Below, piece after piece: positions 2,424 to 51,142 of a stretch of 64,000 bases of DNA. Below the pieces are notes generated by a model that made no database searches, was not told the DNA's origin, and saw only the letters and a program-made list of their open reading frames with translations. Each line of letters opens with the position of its first letter. Position 1 is the stretch's first letter. The DNA is from a virus. Location: positions 1,779-65,778 of IMG/VR virus record IMGVR_UViG_3300031454_000255; one strand, given 5' to 3'. Both the position numbers and the translations under genes were made by a program.

Positions 2424-5400
2424 TCAAACCGTTGACGACCCGCCGCCGTCAACTATAATCCTTTTGTTATTATGCACGGCAAACCCGCCCGCGAAATATG
2501 TGTGATTTTTAAGGACGTGCAGATTATAAACCTTCACCGCGCCTTTAATATAAACGCGCTCAATGAATTTTAATTCTTCAAGCCTATCGCCGTTTTTGAC
2601 GAAGACGCTTTGATTTTCTTGCAAATCTTGAAGCGCAACAAATTCATTTTTTGCCGTTAAAAACGGGTGTTCGCCCGTAACGCACAAAACCTGCCCGCCG
2701 GGGAAACGCGCCTCAAAGTATCCTTTCGACGCGTGTTCGAGCGTGGCGGCAACTGTGTCAATTTCAATATCAAAAGTTTGCGGGTTGAAACTGTAAATTA
2801 AATCACCGCTGCGTATTTTATCGAGTCTTAAAAGTCCGCCTTGTGTTTCGATTAAAGTATCACCGGTAAAACATTCGCCGCCGCCCGCCGTTGTGCCGCC
2901 CGTTGTGCCGCCCGTTGTGCCGCCGCCGCCGCCCGCCGGAGGTGTCGGGTCAACAGCTGTTCCGCCCGTGCCGTCCGCCGCCGCGAAAGTAATATCGATA
3001 ATATTTGACCACGCGCCGAATTCGACATTGTTCGATGAATGCGCGACGCGGACAAAGCGCGTCTCGCTGGTCGCTAAATTCGCCGTTCTCGATAAAGTGA
3101 CGACGGGCGTTAAAATCAGTCCGACTTCATTTTGCGCCGAATGGATAAATTCAGACGGGCTGACAAAAGTGTTCAATGCCGCCGTCTGCACTTTTCTAAA
3201 TTGCGCGCCCGTCCCGTAATTAGTCACGGACACATTAACGCTTCTGTTTGTTGCCGTGCCCGATTGGTATATAACCGGCGCGTTCTGTTCGGTATTCGTT
3301 CCGGCGTTGGTGACAACGGGGAGCGGCACGATTTTTTCCCTAATTTGATCGTCAGAAAATTTGCGGTGGTATTTACGCCCCGACATTCCGATTTGCGCAA
3401 AACCGTTTTGGTCGCGAATTCCTAAATCGGACAATCGAATCAGCGCGTTGACAAAACGCCCGGATTCTTCGGTCACGGCAATCACGTCGGCTTCCTCTAG
3501 CAATAGTGCTTCCCCGTCGCTGGAAAATCCTGTATAGGTGTCGGCGTCGCGCAATTCCGCCAGCCTCTGCTGCGCGATACGCATCATTTGATTATATGAA
3601 TCAATCGCCGCGCCGTTGATCGTCACGGGATTAACCTTTTTAACCTTTTTGATGTGCGCTTTGTCTTTGAGACGGCTTTTCGTCAATTTAAAATCCTGCG
3701 ACGCATCCCTCCAATCAATATCTATCGCGTTCGTCGTCGGCTGATCGCCGCCCAAATTAAACTCGAAACTACCGCTTAAAATATTCGACCCGCGCAAGTT
3801 TGCCGCCCTGGATGTTTTGTCGGCAAACGCCATCGCAACGTGCGTGATTTCCGCCGCCGTTTCGTTCAATGCGGGTTCATCGGGATCATCGTAAAGCGGC
3901 AATTTATCAATCGTAAAAGCCCCCCCGCGATTTTCTCTGACAAACCGCGTTCTGATGCCGTTCGCCTCAATCGAGCAATAAGTTCGCACAGAGATAATGC
4001 GCGCAGACAAGGTAATCGCGGCGACGCTGATGTTTTGATTGGCGGCGAGTGTGATAGCGGCAAGCGGTGACGTTAATGTTTCGCCTTCGACTGTGATGAA
4101 CGAACGGCAAACCTGATAAACGCCCGCCGCCAGAGTTCCGCCCGCCGCCGCCGTCAAAATCGGCGCGCTAGCCGGATTATCGATTGCGGTTTCGTGAATG
4201 TATTGGAGCGGCGTGTCGAGCGTCAAATATCCGGCGCGGCTCGAAACCAGAACGGTTGACGCGCCTGCCGTCCAAGCCGCTTTGACGCGCTTGTTTAAAT
4301 AGTTATGTGAATTTATCAAAGCGGCGAGCCAGCCCGCAACCGTCGCTGTCGTGTCGCCCCCGACCGGATTATAAACAAGCCGGTAATTGTCAATCGTGAC
4401 AGTTTTCGCGCCCGCCGCATTTGAGACTGTCAATGTCACCGACGGCGGCGCGGTATCGGTACCATTCGCTAAAGTCGCAGATGAGCTTGCCGCGCCGCCG
4501 CCTGCCGTAATTGTGACGCTCGAAGCTACATACCGAAACGCCGTCACCATTCGGACTTCGGACGTTCCTAAATTCGAGCCGACGACGATTCTTGTTCGAT
4601 TGCTGCGAAAAGGATTAATATTTTCAACAAAGATTTCAGACGCATTTGCCGCAGTTGCTGCTTTTATAAAAGTAAAGTCAGCCGGTTTCATTACTTTGAC
4701 GGCTATTTTACCGCTTGCCTTTTGCGTTAGATAGCCGTTAAAAGATGCGAAAATGACATCGTAAAGAAAATCGAAGGCTTTCGTCTGCTCATTGATTATC
4801 ACGTTCGTCGTGTAGCGTTTGCGGAAATAGACGGGCGGCGTTTGATAATCGGGCAAACCCGAACCGTTCAAATCGTCGCCGATAAGCGGCGGGTCGTCGT
4901 AAAAATTGTAATCGACCTCCTCCAAATACTCGCCGTTGTTAAACGCGCCCCCGGCGCGGTTCGTAAAATAGCGCGGATTGAGCCTTGCAGTCGATAAATA
5001 GTTGCGGTAAGCCGCGCCAGCCAGCCCGATTTGCGAGGCGTCGTATTGCACGACTTCGGAATTTGAATTGTCGGTCAAAACGTGGTCATTGTAATCAGCC
5101 GTCTCCAGAGTGTCATTGTCATCAAGCCACGCCGGGTCAAGATTGAAAACGTCCGGCGAATTTATAAACCACCGCGAGATAATCGCGCCGTTTGCCGACA
5201 TTTGGGAAAGCGTGAATAAGCCGGACGCATCCGGGCAGGGCATTTTAAGTCCTAAAATTACCCCGACAATCGAAGGCGCGGCGTCGTCGACGTCAATCAA
5301 AGTGCCGGTTGATTTACCCCGCACGTAAGCCGTCCGCGAATAAATACCCGACGCGATAAAAGCCGGGTCGTCGTTGATCTGGCTGCCCGTGCCGCCCAAT

Positions 5401-6056
5401 TGCCCTATTTTTGGCAAAACCGGCAAACCCGTAATATGCGACGTATAACTGCCGTCGGTAAAGTCGGTGAACGTAAAACCGGGCGTGACCGAACGCAAAT
5501 TCTCGATGCCCTCAATCTCGCCTTCGCACGCAATCGCTAAAAATTGAATCTCTAAGCCGGTGTCGGCGGAGGCGAAATTGGTCAACTCCATCTGCGCTCT
5601 GCCGAACACATACGGCAGATACTTGCTGGCATTGGCGTCCGAGTGCGAAGACCACTGCAAAGTCTGTTTGACCGGTTTCTTGAGTCCGAGAAGCCCCAAA
5701 ATCCCACCGCGTTTTACTTTACTTTTAAATTCAAAAGCACCGTTTCGCGCTTCATAACGAAAGCCTTCATACAGCGGGTCTGAAGGCACCCTGCCCGTGA
5801 TGTCGTCGGGAGAGAATGTCCGGCGCGGCAAATTAACTTCCACTTGGTCAAGAATCTGTTTAACGCCGATTGTCACGGTCTCGCTCGACTTTTTGAACGT
5901 GTTCGGTTTTTGGCAGCGACCTGTAAACTCGACAATCGTGTCTTCTAAGTTGACGGACACGCCTCTGTCAAGAATTCTAATCACGCAAATCAAGCCCTCA
6001 AAGCCTAAAACTCTTTCTATATCCGCAACCCTGATTTTTACTTTTGTTGTCGCCAT
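2424..6056 (-). CDS. Tail-tip/host-specificity (lambda J-like) protein with C-terminal Hint domain
   Basis: About 1210 aa, last gene of the tail operon. Putative tail-protein segment (FEFNLGGDQPTTNAIDIDWRDASQDF...ALLLEEADVIAVT), Gly/Thr linker, then a Hint domain. The ATG at 6056 is preferred because the track's 6098 start lies inside the leader hairpin. Confidence 0.8.
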   Translation of the reverse strand: MATTKVKIRVADIERVLGFEGLICVIRILDRGVSVNLEDTIVEFTGRCQKPNTFKKSSETVTIGVKQILDQVEVNLPRRTFSPDDITGRVPSDPLYEGFRYEARNGAFEFKSKVKRGGILGLLGLKKPVKQTLQWSSHSDANASKYLPYVFGRAQMELTNFASADTGLEIQFLAIACEGEIEGIENLRSVTPGFTFTDFTDGSYTSHITGLPVLPKIGQLGGTGSQINDDPAFIASGIYSRTAYVRGKSTGTLIDVDDAAPSIVGVILGLKMPCPDASGLFTLSQMSANGAIISRWFINSPDVFNLDPAWLDDNDTLETADYNDHVLTDNSNSEVVQYDASQIGLAGAAYRNYLSTARLNPRYFTNRAGGAFNNGEYLEEVDYNFYDDPPLIGDDLNGSGLPDYQTPPVYFRKRYTTNVIINEQTKAFDFLYDVIFASFNGYLTQKASGKIAVKVMKPADFTFIKAATAANASEIFVENINPFRSNRTRIVVGSNLGTSEVRMVTAFRYVASSVTITAGGGAASSSATLANGTDTAPPSVTLTVSNAAGAKTVTIDNYRLVYNPVGGDTTATVAGWLAALINSHNYLNKRVKAAWTAGASTVLVSSRAGYLTLDTPLQYIHETAIDNPASAPILTAAAGGTLAAGVYQVCRSFITVEGETLTSPLAAITLAANQNISVAAITLSARIISVRTYCSIEANGIRTRFVRENRGGAFTIDKLPLYDDPDEPALNETAAEITHVAMAFADKTSRAANLRGSNILSGSFEFNLGGDQPTTNAIDIDWRDASQDFKLTKSRLKDKAHIKKVKKVNPVTINGAAIDSYNQMMRIAQQRLAELRDADTYTGFSSDGEALLLEEADVIAVTEESGRFVNALIRLSDLGIRDQNGFAQIGMSGRKYHRKFSDDQIREKIVPLPVVTNAGTNTEQNAPVIYQSGTATNRSVNVSVTNYGTGAQFRKVQTAALNTFVSPSEFIHSAQNEVGLILTPVVTLSRTANLATSETRFVRVAHSSNNVEFGAWSNIIDITFAAADGTGGTAVDPTPPAGGGGGTTGGTTGGTTAGGGECFTGDTLIETQGGLLRLDKIRSGDLIYSFNPQTFDIEIDTVAATLEHASKGYFEARFPGGQVLCVTGEHPFLTAKNEFVALQDLQENQSVFVKNGDRLEELKFIERVYIKGAVKVYNLHVLKNHTYFAGGFAVHNNKRIIVDGGGSSTV
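2469..2873 (-). other. Hint (intein-like autoprocessing) domain
   Basis: Begins CFTGDTLI, has the block-B TGEHPF motif and ends VYNLHVLKNHTYFAGGFAVHN. Preceded by (GGTT)x3, encoded by a 12-bp tandem repeat near 2889-2922. Confidence 0.9.
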
Positions 6057-6205
6057 TTTAATTAAAATAGAAAAGCCCGCCGATAATTCAGCGGGCAAGA
6101 AGCGAAGCTAAATCTAACGGCGGGCGGGAAAGTCTTTAAGAAAAGAGTTTCGAGACCCTTATTCAGTTGTGGTTATTATAAACTAAATACCAATAAAAAC
6201 AAGGT
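6057..6205 (-). promoter_or_regulatory. Leader A: sigma70-like promoter, GGGTCT box, terminator-like hairpin
   Basis: TTGTTT-16-TATAAT, then GGGTCTCG, then hairpin GCCCGCTG-AATTAT-CGGCGGGC-TTTTCT just before the ATG at 6056. An upstream GCCCGCCG could pair with the same 3' arm. Confidence 0.65.
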
Positions 6206-6256
6206 TTATTTGAAAATTGGACTGTTACTTTAAGACTATATTTAGTAAAATATAGT

Positions 6257-7018
6257 ATGCTTTTAATTAAAAATTGCGAGACTTGTCACCAAGAGTTTTC
6301 TAGAAAAACAGGATACAGTTATAAATATTGGAACACGCAAAGATTCTGCTCTTCAAAATGCAGGTCTATTGCCATCGGTAAATTATTAAGCATAAAATTC
6401 AGTCAAAAAATAAATTTAGTCTGCCAATCCTGTCATATCTCTTTTTCAGTTTCACCCTGCCAATCGAAGCAAAAATATTGTTCGAGAAAATGCCAGCCGA
6501 GGTCGGTAAATGTTTTTGGGCATTGTCCGAATCGCGCAATAGTTTTTAGAACTTGCCCGAATTGCGAGAAAGTGTATAGCGGAAGTAATAATAGATATTG
6601 CTCAATACAATGCAAAAAGCAAGGAGTTAAAATTCAGAGAGCCGCAAAAGCAATGAAAGGCGAAGAACTTAAAATGGCAAAAAGAGTTTATGCCTCAAAC
6701 AGACGCTCAAAAATAATCGCAAACGGCGGCAGTTTTACAAAAGAGCAATGGAGATTAAAGTTAGAATATTTCGGCAATCGCTGCTATCTATGCAGTAAAA
6801 CCGTAACTGAAAAAACCGCCCATATCGAACATCGAATTCCTATCAGTAAAGGCGGCAAGTCTTGGGTTTCCAATCTTGCGCCCTCTTGCGCTAGCTGCAA
6901 TTTCAAAAAAAACCGTAAAACAGAAAAAGAATTTAGAGAGATTTACAATCTCAAATCCGCGCTAACTGTCGCTCGATTTCACCAACCCGTCGAAGCAATG
7001 CCCGCCGCTCATCAATAA
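6257..7018 (+). CDS. HNH endonuclease with N-terminal CxxC...FCSxxC zinc repeats
   Basis: C-terminal CYLC...HIEHRIPISKGGKSWVSNLAPSCASCNFKK; AT-rich and antisense to the tail operon. Confidence 0.85.
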   Translation: MLLIKNCETCHQEFSRKTGYSYKYWNTQRFCSSKCRSIAIGKLLSIKFSQKINLVCQSCHISFSVSPCQSKQKYCSRKCQPRSVNVFGHCPNRAIVFRTCPNCEKVYSGSNNRYCSIQCKKQGVKIQRAAKAMKGEELKMAKRVYASNRRSKIIANGGSFTKEQWRLKLEYFGNRCYLCSKTVTEKTAHIEHRIPISKGGKSWVSNLAPSCASCNFKKNRKTEKEFREIYNLKSALTVARFHQPVEAMPAAHQ

Positions 7019-7118
7019 GCCTTTGCTTTTTTGGTTTTTGGGAGTCAACAATTTTCCGCCTTAATAAACGCTTTTTCTCTTCGATAATAACTGGAGTGTT
7101 AGAATCTAAGTTATCCAC
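6951..7118 (-). CDS. Small basic protein, 55 aa (peptide family copy 1; not in ORF track)
   Basis: Manual translation from GTG: MDNLDSNTPVIIEEKKRLLRRKIVDSQKPKKQRLIDERRALLRRVGEIERQLARI. Start overlaps the stop of 7111..7572. Shares NLDSN and RR...EI.R.L with 35533..35730. Confidence 0.6.
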   Translation of the reverse strand: MDNLDSNTPVIIEEKKRLLRRKIVDSQKPKKQRLIDERRALLRRVGEIERQLARI

Positions 7119-7572
7119 CGTTCTTTAACCACCTTAATATCGCGCCATCTAAAGACTCTCCGTCTTCAATGTCAATTTCAAATGTCGAATTCGAGAGCGT
7201 GAAAGACGCGCCCGATAATTCTTTGCGATAGGTGCGCTTTATTTCCGACACATCCGTCATCAGCCGTTTGTAGGAACGCCCGCGAAACGTCACGCCGTCT
7301 GTTTTTGCGAATCCCATTAAAAAGTTGGGATTTTGAGGGCAAGGACAAAAACCCACAACGGAAGAATTTAAAACGCTAGCAGTTTCTGTAACTTGAGTTT
7401 GATTTTCTGTAACCGGAATTGCATTTTCTGTAACTATCACTTGCGCTGTTTGGCAAGCGCAAAGCGAAGGAAATGTGTCACTTTTGTACAATTCTACCAC
7501 CCACGATTGCCTTTTAGCAGTCGCGTTGCCAGAGGTGAGGACAGTGAGCAAATTGTCAGAAACGGTTTGCAT
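7111..7572 (-). CDS. Minor tail protein; probable N-terminal half of the split tail-tip gene
   Basis: MQTVSDNLL...GVTFRGRSYKRLMTDVSEIKR...ASFTLSN resembles the start of siphovirus tail-tip/hub proteins. The continuation (FEGLICVIRILDR) begins the 6056 ORF. Confidence 0.55.
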   Translation of the reverse strand: MQTVSDNLLTVLTSGNATAKRQSWVVELYKSDTFPSLCACQTAQVIVTENAIPVTENQTQVTETASVLNSSVVGFCPCPQNPNFLMGFAKTDGVTFRGRSYKRLMTDVSEIKRTYRKELSGASFTLSNSTFEIDIEDGESLDGAILRWLKNGG

Positions 7573-7582
7573 TGATTTTGAG

Positions 7583-10321
7583 TTATGCCGCGACGTGAGT
7601 GACCGTGCCGTCGGCGTTGAATACCAATTTACGCCCGTCAATCGCCCAACCAATCTGCGGCTGTGTTGAAACAAGATGAATCACGCCGGTCGCCGCATCG
7701 CGGTAAACCATCATTCCGTGACCGTTTGCTTCAATTAATTCAAGCTGCGGTCGACCGCCGTCCGGTGAAACAATGCTGCGAACCGGTTGTTTCTTATTAA
7801 CAAAGTTCGTTGCCCGGCTGTTGTATTCGGGGGCATTAGCTAAAAGTGGATCGAGAACGTCCCGCTGGTAGCGGTTGCGGGATTCAATGTAACTGCCGCG
7901 GTCGCTCCGCGTGATAAAATCCGAAACCGAACCGGCAGACCATCGCGTCGCGTTATGGGTAGCCAAATCGCTTCCGCCCGCTTCCGGTCGATTGAGAAAG
8001 TAGTCATTCGCGCTGATAATGCCCGCGCCCGCGCCCGGCACGTCTTCAAATGTGCCGTAAGTCGGACCGCAAACATAAAGATTATCGTGAGTGATAAAGG
8101 TCATAGCCGCGCCGAAAAACACTTTCGACTGAACCAAGGTGCCGCCTTCGACGATAAAACCGCCGCGAGTAAACGCGCCGCCCGCTTTATTCAGGAAAAA
8201 CTCCATTCGTTCATCTTGCCCGCCATTAACACGAATTGTATTAAAGACGTTTGTGCTTCTGATAAATGTCGTTCCGTTTGCCACTCTGCCCGTCACGGGC
8301 GAATATGCCGATCCTAAAGTACCGATCGTGTGATGCGAGTTGATTTCCAAATAGCCCGCTTCCAAAACATCGTAAGCGATGCCGCCGTCCGGCACATAGG
8401 AAAACGGCGTGTTGAATATAACCGAGTTATTTACAGAATTAGACCGATAGCCGATTGAATTAAGATCGAAAATCGGTTCATTAAAAACCATATTTTCGAC
8501 TTCCATATCCGTTCCCGATGTCGGGTAATAATCGACGCCGACGCCCGCGCCTTTAAACCAGCAGCGATTGTAAACAACATTAAAAATCGGATTCATACCG
8601 GTTAATAAAATTAACGACGTGCCGGTTGTCGATACCGATTCAAGACGCATATCTGAAAAGACGTTGTTTTTCCATTGCGGGTCGGTATTGGCGGCATCTG
8701 ATTGAATCTTAAACAGGGATGTTCCGGCCAGCATTGACCGAAAGCCGGTCGTTCTCTGACTTCCGCCCTCCATCATTATGCCCTGCGGCATCGTATGCCC
8801 GCCGTTTGTCTGCCACATTCCGTCCGGAACGTAACCCCGCGTGCCGGGTCTTAAAGCTGCAATCCAGCTATCTATCGCCGCCGTATTCTGCGCGGTCGTG
8901 CCGCCGCCGGAAATGTAATTCCCTAAATTAACAACCGGCATTCCGGCTTTCGATTGAACGTAAGTAGTCAAGGACGCGTTATCTGCCGCCGCGCCGCCGA
9001 GAGTCGCAAAAGTTGACGTACCCGTGCCGCTGCCAGCCGGACCGGTCGCACCCTGAATTCCTTGCGGTCCCTGCGCTCCGGTCGCGCCTTTGATGTTGGC
9101 GACAACCGAGTAACTGCCGCTCGTTTGTCTGTAAACGTCGCCGTTCAGGTTATTAAGCCAGAAATCACCGTCGACATTATTGGTTGGCGGTGCGCCGCTA
9201 CCGGCTCGCCAAACGGCTCCGGGAGCGCCTGCTGGTCCAACCGTTCCGGTGCCGGTGCCTGAGCCCGCCGGACCCGTTGCGCCTTGAATTCCCTGCGGTC
9301 CTTGCGCGCCTGCTGCACCTTTAATATTAGCGACGACCCCGTAGTTGCCGTTCGTTTGTTTATAGACATCGCCATTCAAATTATTTAACCAGTAATCGCC
9401 GTTAGCGTGATTGGTTGGCGGAGGACCATCACCATTGCGCCAAACGGCGCCGGGAGTTCCCGCCGCGCCCTGCGGTCCGGCTGCACCGCTCCCCGACGCG
9501 GCAAACAGTCCGTTAAGTCGGGCGGCTAAAGAATTGCCCGTGTCCGGTGAGATAACTGCCGATGCCTGTAATTCGTTGGGCGCGACACCTGTTCCGAGCA
9601 TCCGAATCGAGGTAGTATCGGTATGCAAAACGCCTGATGTTCCGCTGCCCGTTCCCGCCGCGCCCTGGTAGTTTTTCCACAGTCCGGCGAAATCCGCCGC
9701 CGCCGGTGCATTGATTGCCGCTGCGCTCGTTTTGATAGCAATATAGTTTTTCGCCGCGCTGAAGGTTGTCGTAAAACCTGTGCCGTTTGCGTCGTCGGCA
9801 TAAGCGATATAAATATAAGCCGGAATGCCCTTTGCGCCTTTAATATTGGCGACGACTTGATACGAGTTAGGACCGCCAAGCTGCTTGTAGACGTCGCCGT
9901 TCAAATTGTTGAGCCAGTAATCGCCGTCGGCGTGATTAGTCGGCGGCGGACCGTCCCCATTGCGCCATACCGTTCCTGTACCGCCCGGACCGCCTGCCGG
10001 AATCGTATATGTTCCGATGCCGTTTAAGAATTTCAATGCGTCATTCGGCAGCTTCGGCGCGAAACCGTGCTTTGCCGTCGACACGTCATTGGTTACAACA
10101 TCGGTAATTGCAAGCGAAACATCAGTTGCCGTGCCGCTTCCGCCGCCGCCGATTATGTTCCAGCCCGAATTTGACGAATTACGAACTTTTCGCGTAATTG
10201 GTGATGTCGACGTGTCGTTCCATTCGATGCCGGCGCGAATCAGACTGCCCGTCGGCTCCGTCGCCTGGTTATACGCGCTCGGGTGAAGCGAATTCAATTC
10301 GTGATGTTCTATAAATGCCAT
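7583..10321 (-). CDS. Tail fibre/spike with collagen-like repeats and C-terminal beta-helix (pectate-lyase-like) domain
   Basis: GAQGPQGIQGATGPAG repeats, three VWRxGxGxPPTN..DGDYWLNNLNGDVY modules, and the GGGTTAQNTAAIDSWIAAL...YVPDGMW beta-helix start. Confidence 0.8.
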   Translation of the reverse strand: MAFIEHHELNSLHPSAYNQATEPTGSLIRAGIEWNDTSTSPITRKVRNSSNSGWNIIGGGGSGTATDVSLAITDVVTNDVSTAKHGFAPKLPNDALKFLNGIGTYTIPAGGPGGTGTVWRNGDGPPPTNHADGDYWLNNLNGDVYKQLGGPNSYQVVANIKGAKGIPAYIYIAYADDANGTGFTTTFSAAKNYIAIKTSAAAINAPAAADFAGLWKNYQGAAGTGSGTSGVLHTDTTSIRMLGTGVAPNELQASAVISPDTGNSLAARLNGLFAASGSGAAGPQGAAGTPGAVWRNGDGPPPTNHANGDYWLNNLNGDVYKQTNGNYGVVANIKGAAGAQGPQGIQGATGPAGSGTGTGTVGPAGAPGAVWRAGSGAPPTNNVDGDFWLNNLNGDVYRQTSGSYSVVANIKGATGAQGPQGIQGATGPAGSGTGTSTFATLGGAAADNASLTTYVQSKAGMPVVNLGNYISGGGTTAQNTAAIDSWIAALRPGTRGYVPDGMWQTNGGHTMPQGIMMEGGSQRTTGFRSMLAGTSLFKIQSDAANTDPQWKNNVFSDMRLESVSTTGTSLILLTGMNPIFNVVYNRCWFKGAGVGVDYYPTSGTDMEVENMVFNEPIFDLNSIGYRSNSVNNSVIFNTPFSYVPDGGIAYDVLEAGYLEINSHHTIGTLGSAYSPVTGRVANGTTFIRSTNVFNTIRVNGGQDERMEFFLNKAGGAFTRGGFIVEGGTLVQSKVFFGAAMTFITHDNLYVCGPTYGTFEDVPGAGAGIISANDYFLNRPEAGGSDLATHNATRWSAGSVSDFITRSDRGSYIESRNRYQRDVLDPLLANAPEYNSRATNFVNKKQPVRSIVSPDGGRPQLELIEANGHGMMVYRDAATGVIHLVSTQPQIGWAIDGRKLVFNADGTVTHVAA
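9090..9970 (-). repeat. Three dispersed ~40-aa repeats plus duplicated collagen-like spacers within the fibre gene
   Basis: Repeat consensus VWRNGDGPPPTNHA(D/N)GDYWLNNLNGDVYKQ...Y.VVANIKGA; synonymous differences between copies are visible in the DNA. Confidence 0.9.
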
Positions 10322-39510: not shown

Positions 39511-40188
39511 TTGAATTCCACTTCACACAAACACCATACTCCGCAAACTAAGCTGCCGATTTCCGGCATCTCTTCAATCGGTATAAACTCATACGAAGCA
39601 ACCTCAGAGCATTCGACACAGCCTTCTTTCGAGTTAATCACGCGCCTGCAAAGTGTCGCGTCCCCAGCCATTTCAGCAACCGTCGCCAGTCCGTAATAAG
39701 CGGGGCGAACGCCTAAAGCATAAGCCGCCGTGCGCTGTTCAATCTGCAATCCTCCGGCGCGTCCCGTTTCGATGTCGCGGCGCAGTTTGTCCAAATATCC
39801 GAATTGTTTGTCGATTCCCTTTTGCGCTGTTGCCCCAATCCGCATTCGTCATTTGTCTGCGCCCGCCGCGCCCGATTGCCGCCGCTAACTTTTGGGCTGT
39901 TGTAATCCTTTCTTTGACAAGCGATTGCCAGGCGGCTAAGGTTATCGCGCCCGTCGCCAAACTCTTTCCGATTACCCGCAAATCTTCGCGGACAATCTCC
40001 ACGATTGAGTCAATCGAGGCGCGAACCTGTTTCGATGAAACGCCTTTGTAACGATTGGTTTTTTTGTCGTGTTTAATCGTCATCGCTTCGAGCAAGGCTA
40101 ATGCCAGCAATCCTGCGCGGCGGGCAAGTTCGCGCGTTCGTTTTATTTCCTCGCGTGTCGGCTCGCTCGCGTCTCTACGGTCGCTCAT
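39507..40188 (-). pseudogene. MuF/SPP1 gp7-like minor head protein split by a frameshift near 39835
   Basis: Frame 1 ...GGRRQMTNADWG; frame 2 continues GATAQKGIDKQFGYLDK...CVEC...CGVWCLCEVEF. Confidence 0.6.
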
Positions 40189-41714
40189 TTAGTTGTCACT
40201 GCCACGTTTGCCGCCGCGTCCGTCATTCCGTAAGCCTGCGCCGTTATCGGGTCTTCTTTTGCAAGCTGACTGATGATTTCCTTTATTTTCTTTTCGTCGT
40301 AACCTAAAAACGCGATACGCTCCCGAAGCGGCAAAAGTCCGGTGGCTTTATTGGCGTTGTCGAGTTTTGCACCGTCAATCGCCACTCGTTCATCTTCGGA
40401 TTGTTCGATTAAAAGAGAGCGTTTCAAATTGAAATCTAAATCGCCGCCTTCGTAGGAATCGAGATTGAATGGCGCGAACACCTTTTGCTGGTTCGTTTTC
40501 CCCGCCCATCCGTTTGATAGTCGCCAGCCACCAATTGCCGTCTGCATCTGCCGTAGTTTGATTAATTGCCCGTCGTAATTCGGCGCGGCGCGATCAAGAC
40601 GATTCTGTGCCGGAGTCAATAGCCGTTCGAGCGCGATACCTGAAAGCGTGGCGTTTTCTTTGATAATTTGCCGGTATTCGAGTTCGGGGTAATCCGCGCC
40701 GAAGGAGACGAGCAATTCTTTCAAATACGGCTGCGCTTCAGCAAGTTTGAGTTTGCCCGATAAATCATTGACCGATACCACACCTTTAGAAGCAATTAAA
40801 ACTCTTTCAAGTCGAGTGTCCGCTTCTCTGATTGTGCCGTCGGCGTTCTTTGTCGCGCCTGAAATCGTCATGATTGACGCCGGGTCTTCGAGTCCGAGCC
40901 ATTTGCCGGATTCGATTTCTTTGTGGATATTGTCGTGCAGGTGCGAAGCTAAAGAATTCGCGTGATTCACTTTCGCGTAATCATTAAACGCCGCGTCGCC
41001 GAACGCGCCCGCGCCCGTATGACGAAACTGAACAGCGGGACAAAAGCCGTAGGGATTCGTCACAACCGAGGGTTTGCCGAGATAATCAAAAGGTTTGTCG
41101 TTATAGAAAAAACGAAAATCGTCTTTGGTGATTTCCTTTCGGAATCTGAATGTTTCTTTAAGAACGGGGTCATACACGGGAATCTCAACCGTATAGGCTT
41201 CGACATCTCCGGCGCGATTCATTTCGATATGCTTGATAAATCCCGCCCAAACCGTATTCTGTTCGATTTTCTGCCGATCTTCGTTGTCGATGATTTCAAC
41301 CAGACACGACCCGGCAACGGCGGTGTAGGCTTTGATTTCGGCTTGCGCCCGCCAGAAGTTTGTCCATTGGTCAATCTGAGCAATCGTATCAATTATCTTT
41401 GGGTTCGCGGCGTAAGCGACCGGCGTCACCAAAGACGGATGGTCGGCGTCAGACGGCGCCGACCAGATGTTATCAACGTAGAAATCAATAATATTCGGCA
41501 CGACGTTAAAGACGAGCTTCGTATGCTGATACAGATCTTCCTTAGTGCGGAGCCACGACCAGTCATTCTCGACGGCGAACGCTTTCCGAGAGTAATATGC
41601 CCACGCGAGACGGTAACCGTCCAAATGTTCGTCCGCCGATGGTTTATCGAATAATCCCGCCGGATCGGTTAGTGTTTTATATGCCATTTTTACCCTCTCA
41701 AAAAAGTTAAACAT
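40185..41714 (-). CDS. Portal protein
   Basis: 509 aa after the terminase; NVVPNIIDFYVDNIW, ENATLSGIALERLL. Confidence 0.8.
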   Translation of the reverse strand: MFNFFERVKMAYKTLTDPAGLFDKPSADEHLDGYRLAWAYYSRKAFAVENDWSWLRTKEDLYQHTKLVFNVVPNIIDFYVDNIWSAPSDADHPSLVTPVAYAANPKIIDTIAQIDQWTNFWRAQAEIKAYTAVAGSCLVEIIDNEDRQKIEQNTVWAGFIKHIEMNRAGDVEAYTVEIPVYDPVLKETFRFRKEITKDDFRFFYNDKPFDYLGKPSVVTNPYGFCPAVQFRHTGAGAFGDAAFNDYAKVNHANSLASHLHDNIHKEIESGKWLGLEDPASIMTISGATKNADGTIREADTRLERVLIASKGVVSVNDLSGKLKLAEAQPYLKELLVSFGADYPELEYRQIIKENATLSGIALERLLTPAQNRLDRAAPNYDGQLIKLRQMQTAIGGWRLSNGWAGKTNQQKVFAPFNLDSYEGGDLDFNLKRSLLIEQSEDERVAIDGAKLDNANKATGLLPLRERIAFLGYDEKKIKEIISQLAKEDPITAQAYGMTDAAANVAVTTK

Positions 41715-41718: not shown

Positions 41719-42885
41719 TTATTTTAGAAGTCTGACGATTGATTTTTGTTCATCGGTCATTGCAAAGACGGGCTGATTAAAATAAAACGAAGCGTATCTG
41801 CCGGCGTCGAGTAAATGGTCGTCAAACTTGACGACTTCATCGGTTAAAGTGCCGCTTTTGTCGGTTTTCCACGAATAGCGTTTGATTTCCCGAAGTAGAT
41901 TGCCGCTAGTCTCTAAGATTCGCAAAGGTTTTGATTTAACAAAATCAACGGTGTCTTTGACTAATTTGAAAGCGGGTTGAATACGAAAACCAGCGCGTGA
42001 TATTTCTTCGATTCTCTGAGGTTCGGCAGCGTCGGCAATAATCAGCCTGCCTTTGAGTTCGGGGAAAGTTTTCAGTCTTTCGATTAAGTCGGCGTTTGTT
42101 AATTTCGATTCATACAGCATTTCGCGCCAGTAAAGCGTGTTGTCGAGCATCGTAACTTTGCACAAAGCCGTCGGATTGTTGTAACCGAAATCTAAACCGT
42201 AAACCATTTCGCCTTCGGGAATTAATGAAACTTCGCGCCAATGTGTGTAAATGCGCGAACCGCCCGCACCGATTTGACCAAGCCCGTAAATGTTCCAATA
42301 ATCGGCGTCGGCATCTTTTAATCTTTCAATTTCATCGATAATGGATTGGTCGAGAAACTTGTTATCAGTGTAATTTGTAACGAGCAAGTCACAGTCATTT
42401 CGGGTTTCGACGTCATCATAAATCCACGAAAAAGCCTCTGACGGATTATAATCAATAACAATTTTTTCCGTTGTTCTGAAAGCAAGCTGCCGAAACGCTT
42501 CAAGAGCGCATTCGTTCGCTTCATTGAGAAACAAATAATCGCGTTTTCGTCCGCGAACGCGCATTGATTCGTTCAAGCCGATAAACTCGACCAGATTACC
42601 GTGCAGAGTGTATTCGTTTGATGTTTTATTGTGAAAACTTTCATCATACAAGCCTAGATTTTCAAGCAATCCGAAAAAATCGCGCATCGCCGACGCTCTT
42701 AAAGCGGGCATCGTCTGGCGAGCAATCGTCAAGGTTTTTCCCGTTTCCTGTAATAGCCGCACAATCCAGTAAATCAGCGTATTTGTGGTTTTGCCCGAAC
42801 GAGTCCCACCCCGCAAAGACGTTATCCGCACAGCCGATTCGCTAAGGAATTCAAAGACGACGTTTGTTTTGATAACAGCTTCCAT
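41719..42885 (-). CDS. terL: Terminase large subunit (PBSX-like)
   Basis: Walker A RGGTRSGKT, Walker B YLFLNEANE, DYNP, GLDFGYNNPTA, DDHLLDAGRY. Confidence 0.92.
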   Translation of the reverse strand: MEAVIKTNVVFEFLSESAVRITSLRGGTRSGKTTNTLIYWIVRLLQETGKTLTIARQTMPALRASAMRDFFGLLENLGLYDESFHNKTSNEYTLHGNLVEFIGLNESMRVRGRKRDYLFLNEANECALEAFRQLAFRTTEKIVIDYNPSEAFSWIYDDVETRNDCDLLVTNYTDNKFLDQSIIDEIERLKDADADYWNIYGLGQIGAGGSRIYTHWREVSLIPEGEMVYGLDFGYNNPTALCKVTMLDNTLYWREMLYESKLTNADLIERLKTFPELKGRLIIADAAEPQRIEEISRAGFRIQPAFKLVKDTVDFVKSKPLRILETSGNLLREIKRYSWKTDKSGTLTDEVVKFDDHLLDAGRYASFYFNQPVFAMTDEQKSIVRLLK

Positions 42886-43260
42886 TTATTTGACAATTTC
42901 AACTCTAACGCTCGTTAAGATTTCTTTTTCGTTGCTGGTCAAATCGTTTTTGTCGCGTTGATTAAGTCTCTGTTTTCCGAGCCATATTTGCATCGATACA
43001 TTGCCTTCCATCGCCGTTGAAAACTGTTTCATTCTCAAAAGGTCATCACCTTTTGATTTCTTTTGCTGAGAAAATGTAGAAAAATCGATTTTATTGTCTG
43101 TCTGGCAGCGTTTATAAAGAATGTCGCGCGAAACGCCGATGGTATCGGCTATTCCGACGGCAGAGCAGTCAGCTTCAAGCATTTGACCGACTTCCTGCCA
43201 ATCAATATGCACTTTTGGTCTGCCCGCTTTTTTCGTTTTTCGTTTAACCATATTCAGCAA
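42886..43260 (-). CDS. terS: Terminase small subunit
   Basis: AGRPKVHIDW...GNVSMQIWLGKQRLNQRDK, directly upstream of terL. Confidence 0.8.
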   Translation of the reverse strand: MLNMVKRKTKKAGRPKVHIDWQEVGQMLEADCSAVGIADTIGVSRDILYKRCQTDNKIDFSTFSQQKKSKGDDLLRMKQFSTAMEGNVSMQIWLGKQRLNQRDKNDLTSNEKEILTSVRVEIVK

Positions 43261-43403: not shown

Positions 43404-44405
43404 CTACCTACCCAAATTCTTCATAAAAGTTTGCATAATCGCGTTGTAATTGAATGCGTCGTTTGCGCTCAAACCCGCGCCGATGCTGATTGAAGCTGTT
43501 TGCTGAAGCGCGGCGAAATTGCTGCCCGCCGGAACAGGATTCATCGAACCGAGTGTAATCACTCCATTCGAGGCTGCCGCCGTGTCCGATGTGGTCGTGT
43601 TTGAGGCAATGACCGCCGCATTTTTGTATAACGTCCGGTTTGCCGCTCCGGTGCAGCTGCCGAGAAAAAAGCCGGAGCCGTCCGTTTGCCCCACCGATAC
43701 TCTACCGGTTGCCGCATTGCCCGAATCATAAATTGACGCGCTATCACCGCTGCGGCGGCAAATAAGCCCAAAAATCGGATTTCCCGTCGCCGTATTGCCG
43801 ATGCCGATATTCCAGCCGTCGCCCGCTTGCGACGCTGTGCGAGAGTAGTAGCCAAGATGGTTATTGGTTACCCAATCGGAAACATTTGTTGCCGGGTTGA
43901 ATCCGGTCGCCGGAAAGTTCGCTCCGTCGGGCGTCGCGCCGTCTGCGCCGTGCGTCCAAATCGCATTTGTAAATCCAATCGGATAAAGGTTCGGGTCTTT
44001 TAAGTTTAATGAATGCCGCGCAAAAGTTCCGCCGAGCATTGGGTAGAGCGCGTAAATTTTCGCCCACAGCGAATAGGACTTTAAGTCCGTAACGACTTTA
44101 TTGACGTAATACCAAAGCTGAATTCCTGTGCGCTGAAAGCCGGTTGACAAATAATAAATTGTGGAATCGTTGGCAATTCCGAGCGCCTTCATAAAAACAA
44201 TTGTCGCCGCATCGAAAGGCGCGGCGTTAAACGGCAGCCAGTGTGTTCCGTTATCGCCGTAAAAGGTCGCGTCCGGCGTCGAGAAAACAACGCGGTTCAG
44301 CACACTTCCAACCGGCGGCAATACGGTTACCGTCGATGTTTTAGCGGCTTTTATATCGGCGCCGATAGCCTGTATGACTGCTGTAATTCGTTGTTGAAGC
44401 GTCAT
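43404..44405 (-). CDS. Virion appendage/fibre protein with a putative lectin-like C-domain
   Basis: N-terminus MTLQQRITAVIQAIGADIK shared with 44411..44914; LWAKIYALYPMLGGT motif. Confidence 0.55.
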   Translation of the reverse strand: MTLQQRITAVIQAIGADIKAAKTSTVTVLPPVGSVLNRVVFSTPDATFYGDNGTHWLPFNAAPFDAATIVFMKALGIANDSTIYYLSTGFQRTGIQLWYYVNKVVTDLKSYSLWAKIYALYPMLGGTFARHSLNLKDPNLYPIGFTNAIWTHGADGATPDGANFPATGFNPATNVSDWVTNNHLGYYSRTASQAGDGWNIGIGNTATGNPIFGLICRRSGDSASIYDSGNAATGRVSVGQTDGSGFFLGSCTGAANRTLYKNAAVIASNTTTSDTAAASNGVITLGSMNPVPAGSNFAALQQTASISIGAGLSANDAFNYNAIMQTFMKNLGR

Positions 44406-44410
44406 TGAAT

Positions 44411-44914
44411 CTAGGTTTTTGCGGTCGTATAATCGGTTACGAAATTATGGTCAGTATCGCCGATTTCAACTGCCGACAGCGCGCCGGTATTCGTTCGCGC
44501 TTGAATCTGCTGAGCGGGCGTTAAACTTTGCGCTGCGTCGAATCGAACGCGGTTGCCAACGGCTGTTACCAAACCGGAAATCGCCGTATCGTCTGACTGT
44601 AAGATGTTTTGAATTTCAATCAGCGTATCGTAAGCCGCGCTTGCACCGCCCAAAATGTCGGTTTTCAAAGACGCGAGCAAAGCCGTGATTTTCGTTGCCG
44701 AATAAGTTTTAGTCGTCGAGTTTGAGGCTGCGGCGTCGTCGACTTCCGGCGTTCCGGCGGTAGCCAGCGCCGCTTTGATTTCGTTAATTGCCGCCACGAG
44801 CGAATCTTTTGCAGCCGTTGTCAATGTGGAAAGATTTCCGTCCTGTGCCAGTAATGTTTTAACATCCGCACCGATGGCTTGGACGGCTGCTGTAATTCTT
44901 GCTTCTAAAGTCAT
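44411..44914 (-). CDS. Fibre-like helical protein
   Basis: MTLEARITAAVQAIGADVK...AKDSLVAAINE...GASAAYDTLIEI...QARTNTGA. Confidence 0.6.
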   Translation of the reverse strand: MTLEARITAAVQAIGADVKTLLAQDGNLSTLTTAAKDSLVAAINEIKAALATAGTPEVDDAAASNSTTKTYSATKITALLASLKTDILGGASAAYDTLIEIQNILQSDDTAISGLVTAVGNRVRFDAAQSLTPAQQIQARTNTGALSAVEIGDTDHNFVTDYTTAKT

Positions 44915-48958: not shown

Positions 48959-49273
48959 CTAGACCGACGAAATTAATTTATGTTTGGAGAGCGTTTCGGT
49001 TTTGATAACTTCAATCGGCGTGTCGACGGGAGCGTTGCGGGCTTCACGAACGACATTGACGTTGTATTTTTGTTTCGCAATCATCCAGAGCAAACTGCCG
49101 CAGAAAAACAACGCGCCGACGAGATACTGCACAGATTCGAGACTCGTCAAGGTTTCAGTCTGCTCTGAATTTAACCAGCCGCTATGGACAAGTTTTAAAC
49201 CGACGACGACAAGAAATTTTCTGATTAAATCGGCGGCTAATTGTTTGTAAAAATCCGTATCCTTATTAGTCAT
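48959..49273 (-). CDS. Holin-like protein
   Basis: Two hydrophobic segments; overlaps the endolysin stop codon. Confidence 0.55.
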   Translation of the reverse strand: MTNKDTDFYKQLAADLIRKFLVVVGLKLVHSGWLNSEQTETLTSLESVQYLVGALFFCGSLLWMIAKQKYNVNVVREARNAPVDTPIEVIKTETLSKHKLISSV

Positions 49274-49904
49274 CGAGTTTCTCCAGAGCTTCTGTATAAC
49301 TAGAATTGAGCGGCGAAGGAGCGTGAGCGGCTTTGTTTTCGACTGTATCCGCATTGCTTTGTTCGCCGCCGTTTTCAACTTCCCCGTTAGCGGAGTTATT
49401 AACTGAGTTCGCGCGCGCTTGCGTTGGGGTTGGGGTTGAAAGTGAGTTTGTGTCAGGTGTTAAAAATAATTTGCGTTCGGCTTCACGGCGGCGCGTTAAA
49501 CCTTTAACGACAACCAATTTTCCTTTTACAGTTGCTTTTACCCAATCTAGGAAGTGGTTGCTTGCCGACACGTAATCTTTTTGGTTTAGCTTTCTCAAAA
49601 CCGACGAACCCGAAAAAGCGTGTGCGCCGATATTAAAAATAAGGCTCGTCAAAGCACTTCTTTGGTTATCGTTTATCGGAACTTTAACAAGGGTTTTAAC
49701 GGTATTGCCCGCCGAAGCTAAATCTTTTGTCAAAAAAGCATCGGATTGTTCGGATGTTATTTTTTGTCCTAATTTAAGAGTGCGTTTATCGTCTGCGGTC
49801 AATAAATGTCCACAGCCGACCGTTTCTAAGTTCGCGCTATCAAGATAAACTTTCAGCACTACGCCCTCAAATTGCTTTATTAAATCTAATGTTTGCTTAT
49901 TCAT
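49266..49904 (-). CDS. Endolysin, GH24 (phage lysozyme family)
   Basis: IKQFEG...YLDSANLETVGCGH (E-D-T triad), NQRSALTSLIFNIG, GLTRRREAERKLF. Confidence 0.92.
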   Translation of the reverse strand: MNKQTLDLIKQFEGVVLKVYLDSANLETVGCGHLLTADDKRTLKLGQKITSEQSDAFLTKDLASAGNTVKTLVKVPINDNQRSALTSLIFNIGAHAFSGSSVLRKLNQKDYVSASNHFLDWVKATVKGKLVVVKGLTRRREAERKLFLTPDTNSLSTPTPTQARANSVNNSANGEVENGGEQSNADTVENKAAHAPSPLNSSYTEALEKLDD

Positions 49905-50820
49905 TTTCTTTTTCTACAAACCGCGCTTTATATTGCCGAGAACCAAAAGTTTTAGCTTTTCCGTGCAAACAAGCCGAGATGTTTGAAGCCCAAGCATTTA
50001 ATTCGTTAGCGGCTTCAATGATATTTGTATAAGTTTTTATAATTTCATTACTTTTTGCGTCCAAAACTTCAAAAGGACGCGCAAGCCGTTTTCTTACAAT
50101 TTCAGAGGCTTTTGCTTTGTATTCTAATGATTGCAATACTTTATTAAGTTGCTCTTTCCGGTTTGGCGCATCTCGAAACTTAGATATTCTTTGCTGCTTT
50201 TCTTCTTTAGAAAGTGTTGACCACCATTGCTTTGTTTCTAGGGATTTTCGTTCTTTATAAGCAACTGTATTATGAGATTTTCTGATAGCAATTCCGGCTT
50301 TTGCCCTCGCTTCCGGTGTGTGTAAATATTTCTTTGCCACCGCTCGGCTGGCTTCTTTAATCTTTTCGATATTTGCGGCGCGTCCTTTACGAAGCGATTC
50401 AGTCAGTTTTGTTTTTTCTTCATTATTTGCCCAACGATTTTTTGCCGCAGCCGACATTCTTTTTTTGGTTTCATCTGAAAAACCTAACTGACGGTCGCCG
50501 CCTGATGAGGCGTTATAGCCGTTTTTAGCTAAAGTGTTGTAGGTCAAAATCGCTTCCATTTCTAAAATGTTTAATTCTGCAATTGAATCGGATTCGTATA
50601 ACACTTTCCATTCAAATTCGCGCTGTCCGTATTTACGCAAAGCGCAATGAAAAGGAAATTGCATTCCTTTTTTTGCTGATGCAATATGCCGTTTCTTTCT
50701 GTTTTCCAACAAATATCCGGTTGTGTGAATCTTTCTTGAATAAGTTTGCCCTACATATTGTTTGCCGTTTTTCAAACAAGTTGCGATATAAACAATTCCA
50801 AAAACTTTTATGTAAATCAT
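49897..50820 (-). CDS. GIY-YIG homing endonuclease with NUMOD3- and NUMOD1-like DNA-binding modules
   Basis: GIVY...YVGQT; FSDETKKRMSAA; YTNIIEAANELNAWASNISACLHGK. Confidence 0.88.
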   Translation of the reverse strand: MIYIKVFGIVYIATCLKNGKQYVGQTYSRKIHTTGYLLENRKKRHIASAKKGMQFPFHCALRKYGQREFEWKVLYESDSIAELNILEMEAILTYNTLAKNGYNASSGGDRQLGFSDETKKRMSAAAKNRWANNEEKTKLTESLRKGRAANIEKIKEASRAVAKKYLHTPEARAKAGIAIRKSHNTVAYKERKSLETKQWWSTLSKEEKQQRISKFRDAPNRKEQLNKVLQSLEYKAKASEIVRKRLARPFEVLDAKSNEIIKTYTNIIEAANELNAWASNISACLHGKAKTFGSRQYKARFVEKENE

Positions 50821-51142
50821 AGTAACTACAGTATATTACAGCTACTAAATAAAAGCTATTGAACATAAGCGAAACAAGCGCATCAAATTGGTTTTGTGTA
50901 ATCGGAACTTGAACTTCTTTGTTGATGGCGTTTTCGGCAATTCTTAAATCTTGACGTAAAAGTCTTTCACTCTCGGCTTTTGTGATTTTCCCGTTTAATT
51001 TATACGGTTCGTCTTTTAAAACAACGTGTCCGACACCTATCGTTAAGATTTTTACGGCATCGAGATAGCCGTGCAAAACTTCACCTTCAAATTCAATAAT
51101 TAAATTGATTCCGTTTTCACTTGTTATGTAATTATTTTTCAC
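50633..51142 (-). pseudogene. Truncated GH24 endolysin (homology ends near 50855)
   Basis: IIEFEG...YLDAVKILTIGVGH...QNQFDALVSLMFN, then unrelated residues running into the GIY-YIG gene. Confidence 0.8.

Follow-up and report, generated by a model that had tools for sequence, protein, structure and literature searches.

Truncated and split late genes beside homing-endonuclease genes in a temperate prophage from a rock metagenome

Nuclease-linked exchange of essential genes

In the islands of homing-endonuclease genes known as HEG-islands, nuclease genes lie at the boundaries of genetic exchange, and essential genes or operons, tail operons included, are the proposed cargo (Barth, Dunham and Seed 2023, NAR Genom Bioinform, PMC10448857). 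Nuclease-dependent mobilisation of this cargo is hypothetical in that study too. Here, we describe a comparable arrangement among the late genes of a prophage. The DNA is a stretch of 64,000 nucleotides (bases 1779-65778 of the 66,453-bp IMG/VR record IMGVR_UViG_3300031454_000255, classed as a provirus; hereafter the window), in which a lysozyme gene (locus 1), a tail-completion gene (locus 2), and perhaps a tape-measure gene (locus 3) occur as a truncated stub, nuclease-bearing DNA, and a complete copy, and in which a tail-tip gene (locus 4) is divided in two. As in HEG-islands, several homing-endonuclease genes surround essential structural genes, including a tape measure and tail operons. 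The nucleases mark the borders where conserved DNA gives way to divergent DNA, the islands are unstable in their nuclease content, and essential genes are the proposed cargo. Unlike HEG-islands, the window retains the 5' stub of the invaded gene, so that displacement of the resident module is directly visible. It also stacks three chaperone/tape-measure units, and its island ends are recognisable as a small open reading frame (ORF) and a terminator-bearing leader. It belongs to a temperate prophage of an uncultured rock bacterium, whereas HEG-islands were described in ICP1-like lytic phages, and its shared module (module C, below) is 72-75% identical in nucleotides, compared with more than 90% in ICP1-like phages.

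Homing without an intron by SegB of phage T4 transfers flanking DNA (PMC2330249). The window resembles this in that a free-standing GIY-YIG or HNH gene stands beside its presumed target and the nuclease would be inherited with neighbouring DNA. In T4, both sides are homologous and no stub is left, whereas the alleles in the window are 22-46% identical in amino acids, the upstream join appears illegitimate, and cleavage is presumed. SegF/gene 56 and SegG are further cases of intronless homing. In phage Aeh1, mobE splits nrdA, and mobA lies between T4 genes 39 and 60. Like nrdA, the gene at locus 4 is one ORF in relatives and two ORFs with a nuclease gene between them here, both pieces being conserved. 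It differs in that the target is a tail-tip (gpJ-like) protein, the nuclease gene runs antisense, the insert includes a small ORF and a promoter/terminator leader of its own, and the two pieces overlap by a diverged duplication. A bypass cassette has also been described (bioRxiv 10.1101/2022.08.31.505936).

Free-standing GIY-YIG or LAGLIDADG genes accompany partial duplications of atp6, cox1 or atp9 in fungal mitochondria (PMC7487136). There, too, a nuclease gene comes with a partial copy of its target, which leaves a pseudogene beside a working copy. Those duplications are mostly C-terminal or 90-100% similar, whereas the window is phage DNA with N-terminal stubs, strongly diverged copies, and multi-gene modules. 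The Allomyces atp6 gene is a similar nuclease-linked partial duplication. Morons, which Juhala and colleagues reportedly described in 2000 for lambdoid and HK97-like phages, are comparable to the helix-turn-helix (HTH), signal-peptide, and toxin-antitoxin genes that stand between tail genes here with promoter-like and terminator sequences of their own; in contrast to the window, essential genes are seldom left broken by morons, and replacement modules seldom come with them. Nuclease-linked segmental amplification has been reported as well (PMC13096335).

A first-pass annotation, made by a model from the letters of the window alone, noted the four loci as a repeated break-and-replace architecture and did not recognise it as a described system. 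The latter statement was too strong, as HEG-islands, intronless homing, the mobE/nrdA split, and the fungal partial duplications cover the concept. In view of the work on HEG-islands and intronless homing, its idea of a family of mobile cassettes that carry a replacement structural module therefore restates a published one. New here are the retained stubs, the three stacked tape-measure units, the split tail-tip gene, and the definable cassette ends, all in a temperate prophage.

A single contiguous prophage

A 171,936-bp metagenome contig in the ENA contains the same DNA (100% identity over 20,984 bases), with bacterial genes in its flanks (MutS, Wzz/Poly_export, glycosyl hydrolase) and a tyrosine integrase immediately left of the window. 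The window is an integrated siphovirus-type prophage of an uncultured bacterium from a rock metagenome. Integrase, terminase, portal, capsid, tail tube (25304-25903), and the distal tail set are all single copies. With one terminase, portal, capsid, tail tube, and distal set, this is therefore one prophage and not two in tandem.

Duplicated genes in a metagenome could also come from co-assembly of different phages into a chimeric contig, and the sample does contain another phage with a C-type module, L032 (L-numbers denote relatives' loci, P-numbers homologous proteins, and G001 a genome that was compared). Every sampled word of 18500-28000 occurs in two public runs of rock metagenomes that belong to separate studies (2019 and 2022). 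Of the Logan contigs aligned to 17500-37400, one of 16,390 bp spanned 17468-33857 with 0 differences and another ran from 33967 onward; the second run also tiles this stretch. Logan contigs reproduce positions 1-10012 exactly as well. Read depth is flat, at about 15x in one run and about 7x in the other, and the assembly graph breaks only once, at a 110-bp variant stretch within an island ORF. Moreover, stub and full copies share only 22-46% of their amino acids, so that no assembler would confuse them. Chimerism is extremely unlikely, and the contiguity of the duplicated region, which the first-pass annotation had left to long reads, is borne out by the identical contig, the tiling by the run of the second study, and the even depth. 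The graphs of both runs branch at 33802-34033, where run X2 has a 158-bp unitig with 7 differing positions, which reflects either variation among strains or another copy of this island ORF in the community.

Close relatives were scarce. Megablast of positions 2000-26000 against GenBank phages gave no match, and capsid-anchored scans of viral, genome, and metagenome contigs returned distant mosaics only, with just five proteins in common with G001. A scan of viral contigs for chaperone C, the 511-amino-acid HNH protein, and the signal-peptide DNA patch (all below) found nothing. A 3.3 kb contig of a metagenome-assembled genome (MAG) labelled Pyrinomonadaceae encodes a capsid that is 89% identical, which is too little to name a host, and MutS, searched in the protein atlas, gave no answer on the host either.

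The split tail-tip gene

Locus 4 gives the clearest result of the four. Relatives have one continuous tail-tip ORF of about 1130-1400 amino acids (P0121-P0130, L024, L025, L027) and thus provide intact alleles. In the window, the gene consists of two pieces on the minus strand. The N piece (7111-7572, 153 amino acids) corresponds to the first 105 or so residues of the single-ORF homologues, with an additional 36-amino-acid insertion, and the C piece (2424-6056, 1210 amino acids from ATG 6056) to residues from about 78 onward, with a Phage-tail_3 region and a C-terminal HINT domain. Between them lie a small ORF of 55 amino acids that overlaps the N-piece stop (6951-7118, minus), an antisense HNH_5 endonuclease gene (253 amino acids; 6257-7018, plus, GC 0.38), and, ahead of the C piece, a variant leader with a TATAAT-like -10 sequence, an AGGGTCT box, and a terminator (6056-6215, minus). 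N and C pieces overlap by a short diverged duplication of 15-30 codons around the conserved GFEGLIC motif.

Over most of its length, the C piece is 44-54% identical to P0121-P0128 and 35-38% identical to P0129-P0130. The nearest relative of both pieces is P0121 (52% and 57%), and each piece is conserved to the degree seen among the relatives themselves. The common nearest relative and this ordinary conservation therefore point to a split gene with both pieces under constraint. The locus is a true gene split and not a replacement, contrary to the break-and-replace scheme of the first-pass annotation, whose "N-half" equals only the first 105 or so residues of the homologues. A complex of the two pieces was predicted weakly, with a score somewhat below the middle of the scale against a best control of zero; among solved complexes, 51 of 78 attain the mark applied, as do 2 of 108 mismatched pairs, and passes in this low range are wrong more often than right unless the pairing was likely beforehand.

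Three further observations concern this gene and its nuclease. The C piece ends in a HINT/pretoxin-HINT domain (2424-2925; Pfam PT-HINT, residues 1082-1211, E 1e-10) that is also found in P0123, P0126, and P0127. The intact tail-tip ORF of L027 (9623-13015) starts with ACG where others have ATG, and the gene caller therefore began it 125 codons late. The C-terminal domains of the HNH_5 protein are 54-56% identical in HNH genes of L030 and L004, at other tail sites.

Both ends of the insert match the ends of an island found elsewhere, between tail tube and chaperone in L031. The small ORF is homologous to the small gene behind the L031 tail tube (tblastn E 8e-5; local alignment z=9), and the leader is 79% identical over 72 nucleotides to the terminator of the leader ahead of the L031 chaperone. 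The 1.1-kb insert in the tail-tip gene therefore looks like a minimal copy of such an island at a new site.

Interrupted genes can be restored by RNA or protein splicing, with nucleases housed in group I or II introns or in split inteins. The tape measure and terminase of ICP1 are fragmented by splicing introns that bear HNH-3 genes (PMC10448857), and fractured genes with split inteins and a nuclease are known (PMC2677866). In the window, an Rfam scan found no intron family at gathering score, no intein blocks were found at the junctions, including that of locus 4, and the nuclease genes at the tail loci are antisense. At loci 1-3, the downstream copies start at their own Met1 and duplicate the stub, and at locus 4 the pieces overlap by diverged codons. 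Splicing is accordingly highly improbable as an explanation. With no intron or intein signature found, the fractured split-intein genes and the intron-split ICP1 tape measure differ from the window, in which the nucleases appear to be free-standing and not housed in a self-splicing intron or intein.

Stub and replacement at the tail-completion gene

At locus 2, a stub of 46 amino acids (35727-35867, minus) begins one base past the stop of the 123-amino-acid connector gene, which is the native place of tail completion. It is 45.7% identical to the full copy over 35 amino acids (tblastn) and colinear with the N-termini of that copy and of the L024 and L025 homologues, and it ends with ..KEFF, before the conserved EIEK motif. 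The start of a 65-amino-acid small ORF (35533-35730, minus) overlaps its stop (ATGA). This ORF is convergent with an HNH_3 endonuclease gene (34560-35543, plus; phrog and Pfam HNH_3) in antisense island A (33191-35543, plus, GC 0.39), which also holds ORFs of 66, 103, 164, and 107 amino acids. The 66-amino-acid product is 71% and 62% identical to those of island genes of L030 and L031, respectively.

Beyond island A follow an HTH gene (73 amino acids) and the gene of signal-peptide protein SP140 (32384-33070, minus), a moron-like pair, and a leader, supported by alignment and fold (32230-32384, minus, nhmmer E 8e-38), all ahead of module A (27685-32219, minus, GC 0.44). Module A comprises chaperone A (31743-32219, with a frameshift extension at 31553-31972, minus) and an intact tape measure A of 1285 amino acids with an SLT domain (PF01464), the C-terminus of which shares 44% identity with a bona fide L028 tape measure. 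A 72-amino-acid gene and a second leader (27296-27449, minus, E 6e-37) close the right end of the insert. This leader stands directly ahead of the full tail-completion gene (26761-27312, minus, phrog_26; 183 amino acids from GTG, 174 from 27285), the product of which is 27-34% identical to its homologues in L024, L025, L030, and L031.

The truncated gene, HNH-containing insert, and full copy that the first-pass annotation described here are thus all present. The insert measures about 8.4 kb and also holds a complete chaperone/tape-measure set. Its absence elsewhere was observed directly: L024, L025, L030, and L031 have the order connector, tail completion, 167-amino-acid gene, 99-amino-acid gene, and tail tube, with no insert, and no spacer like the leader at 27296-27449 is present at the corresponding site in relatives. 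The 123-amino-acid connector ORF (35868-36239) was considered as the truncated tail-completion gene and rejected, the real stub being the 46-amino-acid ORF behind it.

Two tape-measure modules and a candidate stub

Downstream of tail completion lies a resident backbone (24403-26756, minus, GC 0.49) consisting of the 167- and 99-amino-acid genes, the tail tube (199 amino acids), chaperone B with a detectable frameshift extension, and a conserved 59-amino-acid gene. It is syntenic with L024, L025, L030, and L031. The 59-amino-acid gene (24403-24582, minus) is 80% identical in nucleotides to that of L030; ORF 24454-24738 on the plus strand is spurious. Island B (22808-24336) follows, with a RelE-like and MqsA/HTH-like pair and a 79-amino-acid ORF on the plus strand and signal-peptide protein SP191 on the minus strand. 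The 79-amino-acid product is 75% identical to that of an L031 island gene, and the signal-peptide patch of SP191 is 80% identical in nucleotides to that of L031 SP188. The toxin-antitoxin pair itself (23426-24134, plus) is thus found within the tail module, between chaperone B and the candidate tape-measure stub.

This candidate, tape-measure B (22188-22706, minus, 172 amino acids), has a GC of 0.53, like the backbone. It starts with MGFSDAVNLLFKI, and tape measure A starts with MGFSDAASLTFKI. Other similarity is weak, with E=9e-4 to the phrog tape-measure protein (TMP) family and E=0.015 to tape measure A. A phmmer search against 1.8 billion representatives returned only the sequence itself and one weak match, and no relatives; hhalign against tape-measure N-termini aligned the first 22 residues only. 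Five nucleotides past its stop begins a small ORF of 59 amino acids that ends with CPNCGRRK (22003-22182, minus) and is convergent with an HNH_5 gene. Antisense island C (19572-22025, plus, GC 0.37) contains three nuclease genes, namely an Endonuclease_7 gene (19572-20087, plus) and two HNH_5 genes (20084-20524 and 20490-22025, plus). An HTH gene (64 amino acids, 51% identical to the L031 island HTH) and signal-peptide protein SP127 (18589-19205, minus) precede a leader with a 20-bp terminator stem (18403-18560, minus, nhmmer E 1e-39). Module C (13995-18425, minus, GC 0.45), with chaperone C and its extension and a tape measure of 1241 amino acids, occupies the canonical place ahead of the distal tail genes. 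The layout of a truncated tape measure, an insert with three nucleases, and a new chaperone with a full tape measure, as first annotated, stands, except that the identity of the stub depends on weak similarity and one of the three nucleases is an Endonuclease_7 and not an HNH.

The presence of two chaperone/tape-measure sets, each with a secreted protein, might itself be adaptive, either for escape from tape-measure-directed superinfection exclusion or as matched pairs of exclusion protein and tape measure, in which case the stubs would be incidental. Tape measures A and C are both intact, each has its own frameshift-extended chaperone and a near-identical leader, a signal-peptide protein precedes every tape-measure gene or stub, and the arrangement is identical in the 2019 and 2022 samples. 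However, there is a single tail tube and a single distal tail set, module A is in a non-canonical place, none of the relatives examined has two tape measures, and intactness may just reflect recent acquisition. We regard an adaptive pair as quite unlikely.

The lysozyme locus

At locus 1, a stub ORF (50633-51142, minus) matches only positions 2-77 of the 125 of Pfam Phage_lysozyme. Its homologous part is 50858-51142 (residues 1-95), and the remainder runs out of frame into a GIY-YIG homing-endonuclease gene. The stub is colinear with full-length lysozymes up to ...QNQFDALVSLMFN (residue 95, SLMFN, about nucleotide 50858) and unrelated beyond. The GIY-YIG gene (49897-50820, minus, the same strand as the lysis genes; Pfam SegE_GIY-YIG, I-HmuI NUMOD-like) starts 36 nucleotides past the end of stub homology, and its stop overlaps the ATG of a complete lysozyme gene (49266-49904, minus). 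The latter matches positions 1-125 of 125 (E 6e-38) and is predicted to be the working copy, which agrees with the original description of a truncated endolysin, a GIY-YIG gene, and a full endolysin.

The stub is 44% identical to its complete neighbour over 86 amino acids and 71% identical to P0002, an unrelated normal full-length lysozyme of 150 amino acids found elsewhere; P0001 is a near-identical counterpart of the stub. The lysozyme copies are therefore xenologues and did not arise by duplication in place.

Shared layout and exchange boundaries

The leaders of the tail loci share a promoter-like CTTGCT, an AGGGTCT box, a small hairpin, and a strong ACACCCGC...GCGGGTGT intrinsic terminator. 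Three copies (ahead of chaperone C, chaperone A, and the full tail-completion gene) were aligned with nhmmer E of about 1e-37 to 1e-40, and one variant lies ahead of the tail-tip C piece. From these elements, the leader would be a promoter with regulated read-through. An earlier reading, that relatives lack the leader, was overturned by a copy in L032/L033. The small ORFs behind the stubs form a weak family, with pairwise z of 3-4 in 5 of 6 pairs. An NLDSN motif in two of them was rejected as a cassette boundary, as its codons differ and there is no boundary at the nucleotide level. Of the layout first proposed for the three tail loci (broken gene, small family peptide, antisense HNH cargo, promoter/hairpin leader, replacement), the antisense HNH genes and the leader hold well, and the small peptides are a weak family only.

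The signal-peptide genes share a DNA patch that is 84-89% identical among SP140, SP127, and SP141 of L030. At 18925-19007, 32747-32841, and 23358-23421, the three signal-peptide genes are 80-89% conserved in nucleotides over their first 16 or so codons and the ribosome-binding region, mutually or with L030/L031. Unlike these starts, the mature proteins are at most 31% identical. The patch could be a recombination linker or a nuclease target.

Relatives differ in what follows the tail tube. In L024 and L025, the tail tube leads straight to a chaperone and a single tape measure; in L030 and L031, an accessory island is found there. The L031 chaperone is 69% identical to that of module C, and the N-terminus of its tape measure is 83% identical in amino acids and 75% in nucleotides over 1.9 kb, whereas its tail completion, 167-amino-acid, and tail-tube proteins are only 31-35% identical to those of the window, with no nucleotide match. 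L030 is the converse, with a tail tube that is 65% identical, the conserved 59-amino-acid gene, and a chaperone and tape measure below 30% (tape measure 27%). Its switch point is an HNH_5 island with an HTH gene and a signal-peptide protein. Exchange boundaries thus fall at islands. In L032, positions 853-3668 match window 18494-15711 at 72.5% of nucleotides over 2.9 kb, with a leader match of E 2.5e-16. Homology of L032/L033 begins exactly in the leader, at the GGGTCT box. L032 (ENA ERZ27247728 k141_124134) comes from the sample of the window, and L033 is the same sequence in MAG assembly GCA_010102415.1 (JAABUN010015435.1).

The order in L031 is tail tube, small gene, antisense cargo, signal-peptide protein, leader, and chaperone. 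Together with the matching ends of the locus-4 insert and this island, the identity pattern of module C supports the idea of a cassette. Some side observations belong to these relatives. The L032 tape measure is called as two ORFs (658 and 632 amino acids), and its C-terminal half is closer to tape measure A, with a 202-nucleotide patch of 76% identity. An IS3 transposase adjoins the C-type set of leader, chaperone, and tape measure in L032, and an antisense IS605 OrfB/TnpB-type gene lies between the 102-amino-acid and tail-tube genes of L031 (2334-3479).

Nucleases, breakpoints and origin of the arrangement

By Pfam, the nuclease genes comprise three of HNH_5/HNH, three of HNH_3 with a fourth from precomputed annotation (L012:1-540), one Endonuclease_7, and one SegE-type GIY-YIG with NUMOD; PHROG HNH families also match. 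Outside the four loci, HNH_3 genes lie at 59584-60138, at 62170-62601, and beyond the integrase, so that the prophage holds about ten nuclease genes. The last of these, L012:1-540, is found left of the integrase, between it and the SBP_bac_5 gene of the host, a position that coincides with the expected end of the prophage or lies past it. The presence of nucleases is sporadic. They are absent from the same sites in L024, L025, L031, and G001, and L004, L006, and L030 carry homologous HNH genes elsewhere, at tail or head sites. Members of one HNH_5 family lie after the tail tube (L004), after the 59-amino-acid gene (L030), and both inside the tail-tip gene and after the tape-measure stub in the window. 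Composition also differs among the parts, with GC of 0.49-0.53 in the backbone and tape-measure B stub, 0.44-0.45 in modules A and C, and 0.37-0.39 in the nuclease islands. Essential genes are bracketed by nucleases: islands A and C enclose module A and the genes from tail completion to tail tube, and island C and the HNH gene of locus 4 enclose module C and the distal tail genes.

We consider it fairly probable, and the best explanation, that the late region was invaded several times by islands carrying free-standing homing-endonuclease genes, with one-sided or illegitimate repair against divergent relatives. Each event would have been a double-strand-break repair or recombination against a very divergent relative. 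On the downstream side, donor DNA may have been copied in, that is, nuclease genes, accessory genes, the promoter-plus-terminator leader, and the form in which the donor had the gene or module downstream. Upstream, a non-homologous join would have left the 5' stub of the resident gene behind. In the tail-tip gene, the island alone (small ORF, HNH gene, leader) may have been inserted, which would result in two separately expressed pieces. The leader would restart late transcription behind the oppositely transcribed cargo. We infer, from comparison of sequences, that the nucleases made the breaks, which copies are donor and which resident, and that the split protein and the prophage are functional.

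The main rival would be illegitimate or short-homology recombination at a hotspot for morons or accessory genes in the tail module, with short conserved patches (signal-peptide start, leader, 59-amino-acid gene) as linkers and nucleases as passengers. The L031 island has the full layout with HicAB, ParB_N, and HTH cargo and no nuclease, and island B here carries RelE/MqsA-like cargo. Patches of 47-216 nucleotides with 80-89% identity lie at island borders between otherwise unrelated genes. A small ORF of the weak family (39346-39510, minus) is followed by a leader-like promoter/terminator (39190-39345, minus) with no nuclease gene between them. At 43404-44914, ORFs of 167 amino acids (the N-terminal half of phrog_4757) and 333 amino acids share their first 19 residues (74%) and 57 nucleotides (72%), again with no nuclease gene between; these may be another stub-plus-replacement or alternative proteins with a common anchor. 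Given the nuclease-free islands and the border patches, the island could therefore be a general recombination hotspot in which nucleases lodge. On the other hand, a nuclease gene lies within 5-40 nucleotides of the stub or the stub's small ORF at all four loci. Three of the four breakpoints lie in conserved motifs adjoining the nuclease gene (FN(IG), FF/EIEK, and GFEGLIC), as is typical of homing-endonuclease targets, and some ten nuclease genes from four families are found in one prophage. On balance, a hotspot with passenger nucleases seems unlikely, although it is the strongest competitor to repeated invasion by nuclease-bearing islands.

Several points weigh against repeated invasion. The L031 island shares its architecture with those of the window, and island B carries a toxin-antitoxin pair in place of a nuclease, so nucleases may be passengers; the nuclease-free element at 39190-39510 and the 167/333-amino-acid pair point the same way. 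The nucleases belong to four different families, and the lysozyme locus shares none of the cassette features of the tail loci. ORF 22188-22706 can only tentatively be called a tape-measure stub. The place of module A ahead of tail completion is non-canonical and takes at least two events, whatever the model. All allele pairs are too diverged for co-conversion tracts to be mapped. Finally, the source sample may itself be among the two supporting runs, whose independence is therefore incomplete.

All four break loci of the first-pass annotation are present, with the corrections given above. Its proposal of mobile cassettes fares less evenly: insert-free relatives, xenology, conserved ends, and the sharing of module C speak for it, and the four nuclease families, the lysozyme locus, and the nuclease-free L031 island against it. 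In its strictest form, the inserts would be a discrete mobile unit with an upstream small coiled-coil/zinc-knuckle ORF at the stop of the landing gene, a downstream promoter/AGGGTCT/terminator leader that restarts late expression, and interchangeable antisense cargo (homing nucleases, toxin-antitoxin genes, regulators, exclusion proteins), able to drag chaperone/tape-measure modules between phages. We regard this form as rather unlikely. If true, it would define a class of expression-competent cassettes found specifically in the late operons of phages.

Other features of the prophage

All late genes are on the minus strand, in the order lysis, terminases, portal, capsid, three connector genes, and a much enlarged tail region. 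The lysis genes lie at about 48-52 kb (minus), followed by the small terminase (42886-43260, minus), large terminase (41719-42885, minus), portal (40185-41714, minus), and major capsid (36959-38014, minus). The tail region ends with a fibre-like gene of 740 amino acids (9-2231, minus). Between portal and scaffold, at 39507-40188, overlapping ORFs of 149 and 112 amino acids match the first and second halves of phrog_24776, and this pair is a putative frameshifted or programmed-frameshift head gene. Tandem 231-nucleotide repeats (72% identical) with a partial copy occur at 9007-9994, within the gene of a 912-amino-acid tail protein.

Significance

The cargo proposal for HEG-islands rests mostly on patterns of sequence identity, and remnants of the kind that such events would leave are preserved in this prophage, namely stubs of displaced lysozyme, tail-completion, and tape-measure genes, a cut tail-tip gene, and apparently imported modules with restart signals of their own. 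These remnants therefore supply definite breakpoints, together with candidates for target sites and for donor types (L031, L032). The arrangement gives the impression that selfish nucleases exchanged gene modules between phages and left a lasting trace. Such exchange would succeed even between alleles that are too diverged for homologous recombination, and it may partly account for the shuffling of tail modules among distant temperate phages and, along with the modules, of host range and exclusion specificity.

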